From positions 480,001-512,000 of the forward strand of contig NZ_CP011041.1 in NCBI RefSeq assembly GCF_002310835.1: a DNA stretch of 32,000 nucleotides, in the 5' to 3' direction. The notes beneath the pieces are model-generated. The model had not been told where the DNA came from. It did not search any database and was given only the letters and a program-made list of their open reading frames with translations. Below, piece after piece: positions 20,105-23,908 of the stretch (position 1 is the stretch's first letter; every line of letters begins with the position of its first letter). Position numbers and translations under genes: made by a program. This stretch comes from Pseudoalteromonas tetraodonis. GTDB lineage: Bacteria > Pseudomonadota > Gammaproteobacteria > Enterobacterales > Alteromonadaceae.

Positions 20105-20109
20105 AGAAT

Positions 20110-20144
20110 AGCTGTCAGCTGTAAGTTTTCAGCTGTCAGTAAGA
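20110..20144. repeat. Short heptamer array: agctgtc agctgta agttttc agctgtc agtaaga
   Basis: Read directly between the mutM stop and the paralogue B stop. It contains the imperfect hairpin ctgtcagctg / cagctgtcag (20112-20139). Confidence 0.85.
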
Positions 20145-20148
20145 ATGG

Positions 20149-20496
20149 TTACTCACTTGTTTTTATTTTTGCTATCAAACTTGTTAGCATTTTTGACAGC
20201 TGGACTGTTTCATTTAGCCAAGACTTACCTATGTCGGTATCAATATAGTTAATATCGATGCCAATATATATTTGGGTTCTTGCCTCAGCAAGCGAAGAGC
20301 GAGCGATATCTAAAAAGCGTGTTTTTTCTTTATCACTCTCTCTTGTCATGCCCTCAGCTATATTACTAGGAACAGATAAACCAGAGCGTGTTAATTGATC
20401 TCTAAAGCTAAAGTCTTTAATTAGTTGTGTATTTCTGTAAATATCAGCGCTAAGGCGAGCTGAGCGCTTCCATACATCTAAGTTTTCAAAGTTCAT
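20149..20496 (-). CDS. Four-helix-bundle protein, 23S rRNA intervening-sequence protein / Avd family (paralogue B)
   Basis: 115 aa, aligning along its full length with paralogue A (MNFENLDVWKRS..DQLTRSGLSVPSNIAEG..RFLDIARSSLAEARTQIYIG). RBS AAGGA upstream. Confidence 0.85.
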   Translation of the reverse strand: MNFENLDVWKRSARLSADIYRNTQLIKDFSFRDQLTRSGLSVPSNIAEGMTRESDKEKTRFLDIARSSLAEARTQIYIGIDINYIDTDIGKSWLNETVQLSKMLTSLIAKIKTSE

Positions 20497-20609
20497 AATA
20501 CAAAATCCTTATGCTCAGTTTTTATCCTAGTTGATATTTTATTAACTACAAATATCTATTTTCAGCAAGGAAGTATTTTCTGTTGACTCTAAAGTTATAA
20601 TTAGCTTTT

Positions 20610-21138
20610 CTGACCGCTGACCGCTGACCGCTGACCGCTGACCGCTGACCGCTGACCGCTGACCGCTGACCGCTGACCGCTGACCGCTGACCGCTGACCG
20701 CTGACCGCTGACCGCTGACCGCTGACCGCTGACCGCTGACCGCTGACCGCTGACCGCTGACCGCTGACCGCTGACCGCTGACCGCTGACCGCTGACCGCT
20801 GACCGCTGACCGCTGACCGCTGACCGCTGACCGCTGACCGCTGACCGCTGACCGCTGACCGCTGACCGCTGACCGCTGACCGCTGACCGCTGACCGCTGA
20901 CCGCTGACCGCTGACCGCTGACCGCTGACCGCTGACCGCTGACCGCTGACCGCTGACCGCTGACCGCTGACCGCTGACCGCTGACCGCTGACCGCTGACC
21001 GCTGACCGCTGACCGCTGACCGCTGACCGCTGACCGCTGACCGCTGACCGCTGACCGCTGACCGCTGACCGCTGACCGCTGACCGCTGACCGCTGACCGC
21101 TGACCGCTGACCGCTGACCGCTGACCGCTGACCGCTGA
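20610..21138. repeat. Giant perfect heptanucleotide tandem array (CTGACCG)n, about 75.6 copies
   Basis: Read directly. Phase is kept over 529 bp and I could find no substitution in any line. TGA occurs in all plus-strand frames; the minus strand is stop-free. Confidence 0.97.
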
Positions 21139-21194
21139 GTAATAACTTTTCTTGAGGAAAAAACAACCGGCCGGTAGCAATGTGATTTAAGTGC

Positions 21195-21203
21195 TGGTAT
21201 ACT
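21195..21203 (+). promoter_or_regulatory. Candidate extended -10 element (TGgTATACT) for rplM-rpsI
   Basis: It matches TGnTATAAT in 8 of 9 positions, about 155 bp upstream of the rplM ATG and about 57 bp to the right of the CTGACCG array. There is no good -35, and this is sequence match only. Confidence 0.3.
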
Positions 21204-21358
21204 CCCGCGTCTGCCACGTTGCGTTCTATGTCCTCATATAGTTTAGCCACTTGTGAGCGGCGCAAAAGTCTAAAACTCGAAGGGGTTGTAGCAAACTTAG
21301 AGCGGTAGTTAAACATAACTACCTGTGGTTTTAATTGAAAAACATTGGATTTTTATAA

Positions 21359-21787
21359 ATGAAAACGTTTGTTGCTAAACCAGAAACAGTAAAACGTGAC
21401 TGGTACGTAGTTGACGCTGAAGGTAAAACTTTAGGTCGCATCGCTACTGAAATCGCTCATCGCCTACGCGGTAAGCATAAAGCTGAGTACACACCGCACG
21501 TAGATACTGGTGATTACATCATCGTTATTAACGCTGAGAAAGTTACTGTTACTGGTAATAAATTCAAAGACAAAGTGTACTATGCTCACTCTGGTTTCCC
21601 AGGTGGTCTTAAGTCTACTACTTTTGATAAACTTCAAGCTGCAAAGCCTGAAATGATCATCGAAAAAGCTGTTAAAGGCATGTTGCCACGTGGTCCTTTA
21701 GGCCGCGCTATGTACCGTAAACTTAAAGTTTACGCGGGTACTGAGCACAATCATGCTGCACAACAGCCTCAGGTTCTAGACATTTAA
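21359..21787 (+). CDS. rplM: 50S ribosomal protein L13
   Basis: 142 aa; [27 protein letters not shown].. is canonical L13. Confidence 0.97.
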
Positions 21788-21798
21788 GGAGCACTATC

Positions 21799-22188
21799 AT
21801 GGCAAATCAATACTACGGTACAGGTCGTCGTAAAAGTTCAAGTGCTCGCGTATTCTTACGCCCAGGCACTGGTAACATCGTAATCAACAAGCGCTCTTTA
21901 GAAGAGTACTTTGGTCGCGAAACAGCACGCATGGTTGTTCGTCAAGCTCTTGAGCTTGTTGACATGACTGAAAAGTTTGACTTACACATCACCGTTGCTG
22001 GTGGTGGTACTACTGGTCAAGCTGGTGCTATCCGTCACGGTATCACTCGTGCACTTATGGAGTTTGACGAGTCATTACGTCCACAACTTCGTAAAGCAGG
22101 TTTCGTTACTCGTGATGCACGTAAAGTTGAACGTAAGAAAGTGGGTCTTAAGAAAGCGCGTAAGCGTCCACAGTTCTCAAAACGTTAA
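21799..22188 (+). CDS. rpsI: 30S ribosomal protein S9
   Basis: 129 aa; [16 protein letters not shown]...[18 protein letters not shown] is canonical S9. Confidence 0.97.
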
Positions 22189-22209
22189 TTTTTACGTTAT
22201 CAAGAATTC

Positions 22210-22236
22210 AAAAACCCAGCTTATGCTGGGTTTTTT
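22210..22236 (+). terminator. Rho-independent terminator of rplM-rpsI
   Basis: aaaaacccagc-ttat-gctgggtttttt, 22 bp after the rpsI stop. Confidence 0.85.
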
Positions 22237-22257
22237 GTTTTGTAGCTATAAGATTTT

Positions 22258-22901
22258 GGTTCAAGGTTCAAGGTTCAAGGTTCAAGGTTCAAGGTTCAAG
22301 GTTCAAGACTCAAGGTTCAAGGTTCAAGGTTCAAGGTTCAAGGTTCAAGGTTCAAGGTTCAAGGTTCAAGGTTCAAGGTTCAAGGTTCAAGGTTCAAGGT
22401 TCAAGGTTCAAGGTTCAAGGTTCAAGGTTCAAGGTTCAAAGCTCAAGGTTCAAAGCTCAAGGTTCAAGGTTCAAGGTTCAAGGTTCAAGGTTCAAGGTTC
22501 AAGGTTCAAGGTTCAAGGTTCAAGGTTCAAGGTTCAAGGTTCAAGGTTCAAGGTTCAAGGTTCAAGGTTCAAGGTTCAAGGTTCAAGGTTCAAGGTTCAA
22601 GGTTCAAGGTTCAAGGTTCAAGGTTCAAGGTTCAAGGTTCAAGGTTCAAGGTTCAAGGTTCAAGGTTCAAGGTTCAAGGTTCAAGGTTCAAGGTTCAAGG
22701 TTCAAGGTTCAAGGTTCAAGGTTCAAGGTTCAAGGTTCAAGGTTCAAGGTTCAAGGTTCAAGGTTCAAGGTTCAAGGTTCAAGGTTCAAGGTTCAAGGTT
22801 CAAAGCTCAAGGAGCAAGGTTCAAGGTTCAAGGAGCAAGGTTCAAGGTTCAAGGTTCAAGGTTCAAGGTTCAAGACTCAAGGTTCAAGACTCAAGGTTCA
22901 A
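22258..22901. repeat. Giant heptanucleotide tandem array (GGTTCAA)n, 92 copies
   Basis: Read directly: 644 bp in constant phase. Variant units are gactcaa (units 8, 89, 91), agctcaa (27, 29, 79) and ggagcaa (80, 83). Units 30-78 are perfect. Confidence 0.97.
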
Positions 22902-22981
22902 GCTATAAGTTTGATCTAAGCTTTGTGTCTTTCTTATTTTACAGTTATAAGTTAAGCATGTTTTAGCTGACTGGTTATGTT

Positions 22982-23329
22982 ATGAGGTTTGAAGATTTAA
23001 GGGTATGGCAACGTTCAGCCGATTTAGCTTGCGAGATTTATTTACATTTTAAGCAGAGTAAAGAGTTTGGTTTAAAAGATCAAATAACACGATCTGCGCT
23101 TTCAATTTCTTCAAATATAGCAGAGGGTTATGAACGGGTAACACCTAAAGATTATACTCGATTTTTATCATATTCTAAGGGGAGTTGTGGAGAATTACGC
23201 TCTCAAATTTACATTGCATTAAAAATAGGAGAGGTTGATACGACAAAGGCCACTGAATGGATTGAGGAAACTCGTGAACTTTCCCGTATGATTTCAGCAT
23301 TGATGAAATCAATCGATGCTTGGGAATAA
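22982..23329 (+). CDS. Four-helix-bundle protein, 23S rRNA intervening-sequence protein / Avd family (paralogue C)
   Basis: 115 aa. MRFEDLRVWQRS..DQITRSALSISSNIAEG..RFLSYSKGSCGELRSQIYIA has the same architecture as A and B but is more diverged. The Shine-Dalgarno is weak. Confidence 0.8.
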   Translation: MRFEDLRVWQRSADLACEIYLHFKQSKEFGLKDQITRSALSISSNIAEGYERVTPKDYTRFLSYSKGSCGELRSQIYIALKIGEVDTTKATEWIEETRELSRMISALMKSIDAWE

Positions 23330-23373
23330 GAGGTTCAAAATTTAATATTCATTCAAAAATATATGAGTATGTT

Positions 23374-23429
23374 TCGCCTTTCGCCTTTCACCTTTCACCT
23401 TTCATCTTTCATCTTTCATCTTTCATCTT
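23374..23429. repeat. Heptamer array with stepwise variants: (TCGCCTT)2 (TCACCTT)2 (TCATCTT)4
   Basis: Read directly, 45 bp downstream of the paralogue C stop. Confidence 0.95.
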
Positions 23430-23908
23430 CAATTTTCCCTTTAAGACTAATGTCGACATTAGCTTGATCAAAATAGGCCAAGTATGCGTATTTATTGAAC
23501 GAAAGCTTAAAAATGACCGACTAACGCAAAAAAAGTTAAATAATTATCGCAATTAGTTTAAATCCATCAGTTAATTGGTGAATTTTTTTGCTACAATTGG
23601 CGGGCAAATAAAGTGAATGAGTTTAATGTCGCCAAATTCAGTGGTTACTTTACTTAGTTGGTGAGATTGTACTTGTTTACAAATTGTTTTTACGGAAGCG
23701 ATACTATAGTCATTTGGTTTCATACTCGAGCTAACTTAATCAACTATTTGAGCAAGTCAGGATTATTCGAGCAGGAGGCTGTGAATAACCTTGTTTTAAA
23801 CAAGGGTTTTAATTATGATCGTTTCTCTTTTAAAATTCGAAAAATTAACCTGCTGTAACTGATGTTCTCAATATAGCAAGTGTTGAGAATCATAGTGGAG
23901 ATAAGTGG

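Follow-up and report, generated by a model that had tools for sequence, protein, structure and literature searches.

Four-helix-bundle genes and heptamer arrays on both sides of the rplM-rpsI operon of Pseudoalteromonas tetraodonis: probably two independent cassettes resembling rRNA intervening sequences

In the 32,000-nucleotide window of the Pseudoalteromonas tetraodonis genome that we analysed (assembly GCF_002310835.1, contig NZ_CP011041.1, positions 480,001 to 512,000 of the forward strand), the small ribosomal-protein operon rplM-rpsI lies between two giant tandem arrays of heptamers, each of which borders a gene for a small four-helix-bundle (4HB) protein. An earlier note on this DNA had described a mirror-image layout, running from short heptamers over gene B, a spacer and a CTGACCG array to rplM-rpsI and its terminator, and on through a GGTTCAA array, a second spacer and gene C to short heptamers again. 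Using Tandem Repeats Finder (TRF) and direct reading, we located every one of these elements at its described place, with a right spacer of 79 bp (Table 1). Both giant arrays lie 5' of their 4HB gene, and both genes face away from the operon. We suggest, with a probability of roughly 0.7, that the two modules are independent cassettes that resemble the intervening sequences (IVSs) of 23S rRNA and that their 5' arms were expanded by slippage.

Table 1. Positions in the window of the rplM-rpsI operon and of the three 4HB cassettes A, B and C
Feature	Position	Strand	Basis or remark
Cassette B, whole	20105..21146	-	spans mutM stop codon to conserved rplM promoter block
Cassette B 3' arm, ~4.3 degenerate heptamers (AGCTGTC on the + strand)	20110..20139	-	TRF
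Gene B, 115-aa PF05635/TIGR02436 four-helix-bundle (Avd-like) protein	20149..20496	-
Cassette B spacer, 113 bp, from 5' arm to ATG of B	20497..20609	-
Cassette B 5' arm, (CTGACCG)75.6 on the + strand, (CGGTCAG)75.6 in sense, 100% perfect	20610..21138	-	TRF and direct reading
rplM promoter and leader block	21147..21358	+	host sequence outside either cassette
rplM (L13)	21359..21787	+
rpsI (S9)	21799..22188	+	Pfam labels of identical genes
rpsI intrinsic terminator, strong	22210..22235; with T-run to 22241	+
Left insertion boundary of cassettes C and D	22241/22242		directly after rpsI terminator T-run
Cassette C, whole	22242..23432	+	alignment of C-type, D-type and cassette-free genomes
Cassette C 5' arm, (GGTTCAA)92.1, 95% matches	22258..22902	+	TRF
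Cassette C spacer, 79 bp, between 5' arm and gene C
Gene C, 115-aa PF05635/TIGR02436 protein	22982..23329	+
Cassette C 3' arm, ~8-9 units TTTCGCC/TTTCACC/TTTCATC, C-rich	23372..23437	+	TRF
Cassette A, 830-bp indel	15219..16048	-
Gene A, third 4HB paralogue	15643..15987	-	~4 kb from B/C region
Cassette A 5' arm			AGAAGTC AGATATC AGAAGTC
Cassette A 3' arm, ~6 inverted heptamers	15602..15640

Cassette B starts 5 nt past the mutM stop codon and ends ~8 nt beyond its giant array, and its 113-bp spacer holds the region's only sigma-70-like match (-35 from 20565, -10 ending at 20536; a match to the consensus only). In cassette C, the variant units GACTCAA, AGCTCAA and GGAGCAA are found close to the ends of the GGTTCAA array. 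By TRF, the window contains nine period-7 arrays. The earlier note had also observed that the giant arrays are free of stop codons only on the sense strand of the adjacent 4HB gene. This holds for CGGTCAG and GGTTCAA, whose complements contain TGA, but it does not extend to the family, where 25 of 43 upstream arrays are open in the sense direction and 25 of 43 in the antisense direction. Stop-free heptamers produce spurious long open reading frames (ORFs), and those of 212, 256 and 329 aa that run across arrays in the window are artefacts of this kind.

Genes A, B and C belong to the PF05635 family (E = 2e-29 to 2e-33, 102-115 bits; Pfam cut-off 33.8), match TIGR02436 'four helix bundle protein' (98-112 bits; cut-off 24) and score well within the subfamily NF008912 (159-172 bits; cut-off 124). 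The nearest solved structures are PDB 2GSC, which is Xanthomonas XCC0516 (E = 6.8e-15), and 2RLD (E = 3e-4), both of them homopentamers, and by homology to these the three proteins would be expected to form homopentameric four-helix-bundle rings. Gene C also matches the PHROG 'Avd protein of DGR' (E = 1.7e-5), Avd being the accessory protein of diversity-generating retroelements (DGRs). Among the called genes of the syntenic loci covering 12-31 kb of the window, however, no RVT (reverse transcriptase) family was present, and the repeats that flank the 4HB genes are heptamer arrays, not a template repeat/variable repeat pair. None of the PADLOC defence models matched A, B or C. A and B are 62% identical in amino acid sequence, A-C and B-C 45%, and pairwise comparison of the DNA flanking the three genes yielded nothing alignable or homologous. 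Thousands of further PF05635 matches, from many phyla, were retrieved from metagenomes and genomes. An Rfam scan of the window gave no match and no rRNA; the neighbours are mutM, rplM, rpsI and petA, whereas 23S IVSs are insertions in rRNA.

We compared the window with Pseudoalteromonas loci that encode an identical RplM, among them chromosome I of strain SM9913 (L012, CP001796). Twelve of these have the order mutM-4HB-rplM-rpsI-4HB-petA, with a gene B protein that is identical or 99% identical in the 12 genomes, and carry period-7 arrays in many intergenic gaps, some of them without a 4HB gene (4-76 copies at the 3' end of ppaC, 7-25 at that of the BON-domain gene). Five others (L002-L005, L009) read zapE-rplM-rpsI-petA, with no 4HB gene and zero period-7 arrays in 20 kb each, while L001 and L008, also free of 4HB genes, differ upstream of rplM and contain two short arrays each. 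On the left side, the 862-bp stretch that separates B from rplM shows no base difference among seven strains beyond how often CGGTCAG is repeated, with 1.6, 2.6, 10.6, 14.6, 21.6, 75.6 or 86.6 units; at further sister loci, 11.6 and 12.6 units were counted. This array is a hypervariable perfect tract, a variable-number tandem repeat (VNTR) as expected of a contingency locus. The arrays are far beyond chance, and both giant ones recur in several independent assemblies with differing copy numbers. The outer edge of the left array lies ~8 nt from the rplM promoter and leader block, and because this block is conserved in all examined Pseudoalteromonas species, the cassette-free ones included, the CGGTCAG array belongs to the inserted module and not to the operon. 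A synteny break lies directly upstream of rplM (~19295-21358), with mutM in the window's clade and zapE (an AFG1 ATPase) in L002-L005 and L009, and cassette B is located exactly at this breakpoint.

On the right side, some strains carry cassette C and others an unrelated cassette D with identical boundaries. C-type, D-type and empty genomes part right after GGGTTTTTTGTTTT, the T-run of the rpsI terminator, both cassette types stop before TTTTCCCTTTAAGAC, and the DNA outside these boundaries is virtually identical between C- and D-carrying strains. Cassette D encodes a 114-aa 4HB protein, 39-40% identical to C; its gene is preceded by degenerate CGRGNNN units and followed by (ACCCCGA)6-19. In the sister strains, the GGTTCAA array ranges from ~8 to 54 copies and the 3' arm of cassette C from 2.6 to 15.6. 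Cassette A, in turn, is an indel whose junction falls cleanly at the stop codon of the beta-CASP gene. The window, L012 and L017 have the site filled, L011, L013, L014, L016 and L018 have it empty, and the empty site is itself a degenerate heptamer tract. The junctions suggest a target duplication, TA for cassette A and TTTT for C and D, with one example each. As the arrays lie inside swapped or indel DNA, they belong to the cassettes, and the cassette, that is, the gene with its two inverted arrays, is gained, lost and swapped as a unit. The synteny comparison from mutM to petA that the earlier note had called for gave the two sides separate histories. Because the left side varies purely as a VNTR, the right side exchanges C for D while B stays, and A is an independent indel, the two sides of rplM-rpsI were not acquired or exchanged together. 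The mirror layout probably came about by chance, from two cassettes that were acquired separately in the two gaps beside the operon, and the outward-facing arrangement is one of four possible combinations of orientation.

The association of 4HB genes with heptamers holds well beyond Pseudoalteromonas. Using a pattern and tblastn scan of one genome per GTDB species, we analysed the best 80 of 594 confirmed relatives (681 kb), from Gammaproteobacteria, Planctomycetota, Verrucomicrobiota, Bacteroidota, Clostridia, Acidobacteriota, Chloroflexota and others. Period 7 was the dominant tandem-repeat period, with 236 TRF rows against at most 80 for every other period. Period-7 arrays took up 15% of the first 100 bp upstream of the 4HB ORF and 23% of the first 100 bp downstream, compared to ~0.6% beyond 500 bp and to 2.6% and 4.1% at the flanks of other genes in the same loci. 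Autocorrelation, which is independent of TRF, picked up a periodicity at lag 7, on one side or both, in 49 of 77 loci and one at lag 8 in 11; its threshold was calibrated by shuffling, as a strict threshold of 0.8 missed degenerate arrays. Upon aligning each upstream flank locally with the reverse complement of the downstream flank, with the 99th percentile of cross-locus pairs as the threshold, we found the flanks to be inverted repeats of each other in 40 of 79 loci, where ~1 was expected, and direct repeats at that level in 5. This DNA-level comparison of inverted with direct alignments was preferred because genome composition confounds RNAduplex energies.

In the median, an arm measures 36 nt and holds 4.4 units, the 5' arm stops 42 nt short of the ATG, and the 3' arm begins 16 nt past the stop codon; the maximum among the 80 loci is 38 units, and short-read assemblies resolve little beyond that. 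The 5' arm is G- and purine-rich, with a GC skew of +0.30 (34:7, 34/41), and the 3' arm is C-rich, with a skew of -0.31 (29:8, 29/37). Since the arms are complementary, this polarity is valid on both strands and is a property of the hairpin, not of gene orientation. The units share a Y-N-R-G core that is statistically detectable and weak. Among the canonical loci (L027, L045, L055, L063, L070, L087), the 5' arm in some directly follows the stop codon of the upstream gene, and in others the 3' arm finishes directly before the start codon of the next gene. The arm pairs in the window are degraded but still recognisable in inverted orientation, with matches at 15/17 (A), 26/33 (B) and 19/25 (C) positions. 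Gene-less inverted array pairs were also observed, in L031, L060 and L075.

Individual genomes repeat the pattern. In Vibrio breoganii and V. astriarenae, which are among the closest named relatives of C, the 4HB gene stands between cysD and cysC, with (AAGGTAC/AAGGGAA)~6.6 upstream in the former, degenerate AAGG-type units upstream in the latter, and (CTTGAAC)8-21 downstream; the arms in this operon abut the stop and start codons of the neighbouring genes. The V. breoganii locus L182 contains ~740 N within the (CTTGAAC) array downstream of its 4HB gene (3374-4115), which suggests an unresolved long array in a second genus. Halomonas has wzb-4HB-wzc, with CAAGCTA upstream and CTTGCAG downstream. 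In Xanthomonas campestris (L185, 2920-3375), a homologue ~86% identical to XCC0516 lies between accB and accC, so that the cassette sits inside an essential operon. Its upstream arm, GGGAATC GGGAGTG GAGAATC GGGAATC, touches the accB stop codon, and the last unit of its downstream arm, CCCATTC CCCATTC TCGACTC CCTATTC, enters the accC start codon; cassettes are tolerated after stop codons and within essential operons alike. These arms are the GGGAATC repeats catalogued by Rehm et al. (PMC4692102), who counted ~185 such arrays per Xanthomonas genome, 70-75 of them in convergent (inverted) pairs; neither the text nor the supplements of that study name an associated gene family. In Coxiella, the 23S IVS holds an S23p ORF and is excised by RNase III; 2-3 GACAGAT units, depending on the strain, immediately precede this ORF (PMC4990558).

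As a control, we examined GxxExxY (TIGR04256/PF13366, PD-(D/E)XK), an unrelated small gene, in 80 metagenomic loci (L099-L178); it also occupies the ppaC/beta-CASP gap in the sister loci L006, L012-L014 and L016. In the metagenomic loci, the period-7 coverage beside the gene was 0.000. The flanks instead carried ~3 units of period 8-9, inverted and purine-rich upstream, where the units resemble CACAGAGA or CACAAAGA, with the complements of these downstream. Because GxxExxY has 8-9-mers and no 7-mers, the period is tied to the enclosed gene family and not to a general property of host replication.

Several further observations concern cassette A and its surroundings. The cassette also contains REP-like (repetitive extragenic palindromic) inverted repeats (15231-15391) and a gene-less hairpin of GxxExxY-type 9-mers, ACCACAGAGGTCACAGAGG at 15431-15449 and CCTCGGTGCTCTCTGTGGT at 15528-15546, which are 84% complementary and 78 nt apart; the hairpin lies within the cassette-A indel, and the copy number of its 9-mer is different in L012. 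A sense-strand unit, AGGTTCG, begins at or inside the stop codons of ppaC, the BON-domain gene and the beta-CASP gene, which are all unrelated, with arrays at 17698-17741 and 28791-28880 of the window and in the cassette-A empty sites of L011, L013, L014, L016 and L018; the ppaC array has 76 copies in L016. In L015, the ppaC/beta-CASP gap holds a RAYT gene (13417-13869) and the cassette-A site a toxin-antitoxin pair of the helix-turn-helix (HTH)-HipA type (15633-17208). The conserved nuclease gene of the beta-CASP/metallo-beta-lactamase (MBL) type at this site (16046-17428, minus strand) has large, though sub-threshold, NCBIfam scores for Cas14 of type VII CRISPR (E = 1.7e-97; 327 bits, cut-off 800) and for archaeal aCPSF1. 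All sister strains carry it as a stable gene of the chromosome, with a hotspot for cassettes at its 3' end. Elsewhere in the window, a conserved 166-aa ORF between ppaC and mutM (18781-19281, plus strand) has no Pfam or NCBIfam match. A 288-bp unit occurs three times at 92% identity between sspB and the BON-domain gene (27779-28652), followed by (GAACCTC)12.9. The 11-mer CTCATTCACTC is seen again at 13367, and a CACAAAGAG-type motif is common to 27779-28652 and to ~13367-13430. The region of the 288-bp repeats gave no Rfam match, and the interval differs in length among the sister strains.

Different accounts of the layout can be weighed against these data. The earlier note had likened it to a composite element; as a two-sided mobile element, its inverted modules would have moved or inserted around rplM-rpsI as a unit. 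All 12 sister loci with B do have a 4HB gene on the other side, and the seven loci of other synteny have neither; but B and C are 45% identical in amino acid sequence, neither their flanks nor their ends can be aligned, a transposase is absent, across strains C or D forms the right module while B is constant, and the intervening promoter, operon and terminator are host sequence that is conserved in cassette-free genomes. Single cassettes are, moreover, the rule elsewhere, and we give the composite element next to no credence. The note's other proposal, that the arrays insulate or space the operon, fares little better and is highly improbable in our judgement. While the arrays flank the operon, B's array reaches to within ~8 nt of the rplM promoter block, and the C-rich exit arms could by composition be Rho-loading sites, copy numbers of 1.6-87 on the left and 0 or 8-92 on the right accompany an identical operon and promoter. 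Some Pseudoalteromonas genomes encode an identical RplM without any arrays or cassettes, and arrays of the same kind accompany 4HB genes at unrelated loci. We also doubt strongly that the arrays are generic microsatellites, arising from a genome-wide bias in polymerase slippage, with 4HB genes merely sharing long intergenic regions with them. An excess of heptamer simple sequence repeats (SSRs) is a known lineage-specific genome property (PMC4692102, PMC4679880), and many arrays stand beside ordinary genes. This account is opposed by the ~6-fold enrichment over the flanks of other genes in the same loci, by the mutual inversion of the flanks with their fixed G-to-C polarity, by the position of the arrays within swapped or indel DNA, which makes them cassette-owned, and by the metagenomic GxxExxY genes with their 8-9-mers.

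A contingency (phase-variation) switch, in which the adjacent 4HB gene or the divergent rplM would be tuned in its expression by how many units the 5' array has, would fit the extreme copy hypervariability amid invariant surrounding DNA and the position of the arrays upstream of the genes, and SSR-dependent promoter control is well established in other bacteria (PMC12721329). Yet the likely promoter and ribosome-binding site are in the invariant 113-bp and 79-bp spacers, and the arrays lie beyond these, neither between -35 and -10 nor inside an ORF, where the tracts of contingency loci are located; arrays also occur on the 3' side, and the norm of the family is a short, imperfect array of ~4-5 units instead of a long perfect tract. 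We consider such a switch improbable. Somewhat better placed, if still unlikely, is a homing to the ends of strongly transcribed units (rRNA, ribosomal-protein operons, tRNA genes), which would explain why both sides are occupied. The same ORF family inhabits 23S rRNA IVSs (PMC4990558), and a 4HB gene lies directly downstream of rpsI in L027, L035, L036 and L046, which are metagenome-assembled genomes (MAGs) of Acidiferrobacteraceae, Chromatiales and Candidatus Poribacteria and another gammaproteobacterium; tRNA-Gln(CTG) follows next in L027, L036 and L046, all three for which downstream sequence exists. With C and D included, the rpsI 3' end is reused in at least five lineages, among thousands of possible intergenic sites, and this site preference is real. 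As the four rpsI-linked proteins are 49-65% identical to each other, however, part of the recurrence may reflect shared descent. Orientation points the same way to a modest extent, with 46 of 64 4HB genes co-directional with both neighbours compared to a baseline of 55% for ordinary genes in the same loci (p = 0.006). A dependence on read-through from upstream was considered as well and rejected (61 of 76 co-directional with the upstream neighbour, baseline 70%, p = 0.046). By contrast, most relatives occupy ordinary operons and gaps such as cysD-cysC, wzb-wzc, accB-accC, beta-CASP/MFS (major facilitator superfamily) and trmJ/suhB-like, and tRNA adjacency outside the rpsI group is about at background. 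Gene B, upstream of rplM and antisense, is opposite to both neighbours, which is the rarest configuration in the family (6/64). At the beta-CASP 3' end, another Pseudoalteromonas species (L048) carries a different 4HB gene in the opposite orientation. The earlier note's suggestion of independent insertions that prefer the same kind of site thus stands as regards independence and a favoured rpsI 3' end, but not as a general preference for ribosomal or highly expressed operons.

We favour the reading that B and C are two independent IVS-like cassettes. A cassette would consist of a ~115-aa PF05635 (Avd-like) gene between two short inverted heptamer arrays; the giant arrays would be the 5' arms of B and C, with the short 3' arms (Table 1) as their partners, and replication slippage would have taken these 5' arms to 75 and 92 units, extreme outliers against a family norm of ~4-5. 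The perfection of the arrays, their invariant surroundings and the allelic series in the sister strains argue for a recent slipped-strand expansion and not for a designed length. While our confidence in the identity of the structure and in the variation of the arrays is high, we propose its mechanism and function only tentatively. The complementary arms may fold into an IVS-like stem-loop, either as RNA or as single-stranded or cruciform DNA, by analogy with the ORF-bearing 23S rRNA IVSs that RNase III excises, and such folding would leave neighbouring genes little disturbed and so allow seats after stop codons and within operons. The pentameric protein might recognise the arrays that flank its own gene, in an arm of ~5 units (~35 nt). 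The fixed and family-specific period, the drifting unit sequence and the ~5-unit arm length would follow from this recognition.

A number of observations weigh against this reading. Our set of 80 comprises the loci most closely related to A, B and C, perhaps with too large a share of one subfamily, and on any one side TRF detects no array in roughly half of them. Across 592 kb of the same genomes, 82 arrays adjoin ordinary genes and have no 4HB gene in the vicinity; cause and effect between gene and arrays may run in either direction. In the window, the arms are weakly complementary (scores of 12, 13 and 10, against 11 and 13.5 for the 95th and 99th percentiles of the null), B's 5' array lies upstream of the only promoter-like site and may not be transcribed with B, and ahead of C's array stands a strong terminator. 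Where the arms mismatch, changes that G-U pairing on the sense RNA would accommodate are not in excess (87 vs 116), so that selection on the stem at the RNA level is unsupported, and we rejected it. The similarity of arms in 4-mers falls to background once protein identity is below ~55-65%. A cognate specificity between protein and heptamer was likewise not borne out: arm similarity is raised only at protein identities of at least ~65%, and that of the adjacent spacer also rises, if less. Finally, the paralogues within one genome are old (45-63% identity), and hence there is no sign of recent or ongoing transposition.

The findings bear on two puzzles and may join them. To our knowledge, the very large PF05635 family has no established function outside Avd; two crystal structures exist. 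The 23S rRNA intervening sequences, for their part, contain ORFs that have been puzzling since the 1990s. That tandem heptanucleotides are over-represented in some bacterial lineages has been reported time and again, with no cause generally accepted; polymerase footprint, G-quadruplexes and translational control are among those proposed. The link to 4HB genes may help to explain this excess: gene and arrays travel together, inverted arrays typically enclose the gene, and the period is specific to the gene family. By analogy, we would describe the elements as IVS-like, ORF-bearing stem-loops in mRNA or intergenic contexts, built from heptamer arrays. Apart from the Coxiella IVS note, a full-text literature search that left most subscription journals outside returned no paper that connects flanking heptamer arrays with PF05635, S23p or four-helix-bundle genes. 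The link appears to be undescribed, while its components, the PF05635/IVS ORFs and the heptamer repeats with their inverted pairs, are known separately. Taking the two gene families together, we can imagine, as a speculation that stands somewhat below even odds, that 'self-flanked' cassettes (a short ORF within inverted tandem arrays; PF05635 and GxxExxY so far) form an unrecognised class of elements. The period (7 vs 8-9 nt) would then be dictated by the protein, which might bind, maintain or mobilise its own arms; cassettes and their gene-less derivatives could be the source of the heptanucleotide excess in Xanthomonas, cyanobacteria, Bacteroidota, Beggiatoaceae and Pseudoalteromonas, and the ORF-bearing 23S IVSs might be the same element in rRNA. 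In practical terms, heptamer arrays are natural VNTR markers that break short-read assemblies.

Several known systems resemble the cassettes in part. Like REP sequences, BIMEs (bacterial interspersed mosaic elements) and REPINs (REP doublets) with RAYT transposases, and like MITEs (miniature transposable elements with inverted repeats), they are short, scattered, hairpin-capable intergenic inverted repeats that often stand just after stop codons, and a RAYT gene occupies one of the same sites (L015). The copies of those elements, however, share a conserved sequence that a dedicated transposase recognises, whereas here the unit varies among cassettes, with only its period and polarity preserved, and the gene inside is no known transposase. 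Contingency loci of Haemophilus and Neisseria likewise have a slippage-driven, hypervariable perfect tract next to a gene; in the cassettes, by contrast, the tract lies outside the ORF and the promoter spacer, the arrays on both sides are inverted, and the period is 7 across phyla. The Avd proteins of DGRs (PDB 4DWL) are pentameric four-helix-bundle proteins of the same superfamily, a relationship noted before (PMC10053308), but neither the window nor the syntenic loci contain a reverse transcriptase or a template/variable repeat pair, and DGR Avd genes have not been described with heptamer arrays.

Similar in their repeats are the Xanthomonas GGGAATC arrays, the cyanobacterial STRR (short tandemly repeated repetitive) and GGGGAYT repeats, and the TAACTGA repeats of Beggiatoaceae and Microcystis, which are also of period 7, intergenic, variable in length between relatives and often in convergent inverted pairs (PMC4692102). 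The arrays of the window show the same traits, being many, intergenic, variable between relatives and paired in inversion, and Pseudoalteromonas has been named among the heptamer-rich taxa (PMC4679880). The earlier studies proposed G-quadruplexes, translational control or polymerase slippage and no gene family, in contrast to the association described here. GxxExxY cassettes share the small gene (~125 aa), the scattered, multi-copy occurrence and the short inverted arrays with a purine-rich 5' arm, yet they differ in their unrelated fold, their period of 8-9 nt, their conserved CAC(A/G)(A/G)AG-like core and their ~3 copies per arm. The 23S rRNA IVSs of Leptospira and Coxiella burnetii have a protein of the same family, encoded by an ORF in the loop between complementary arms and oriented with the host transcript, and in Coxiella the strain-variable heptamers upstream as well (PMC4990558). 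Unlike these, the elements described here are intergenic or lie within operons beside protein-coding genes instead of in helix 25 or 45 of 23S rRNA, and their arms are tandem heptamers that can expand to hundreds of base pairs.

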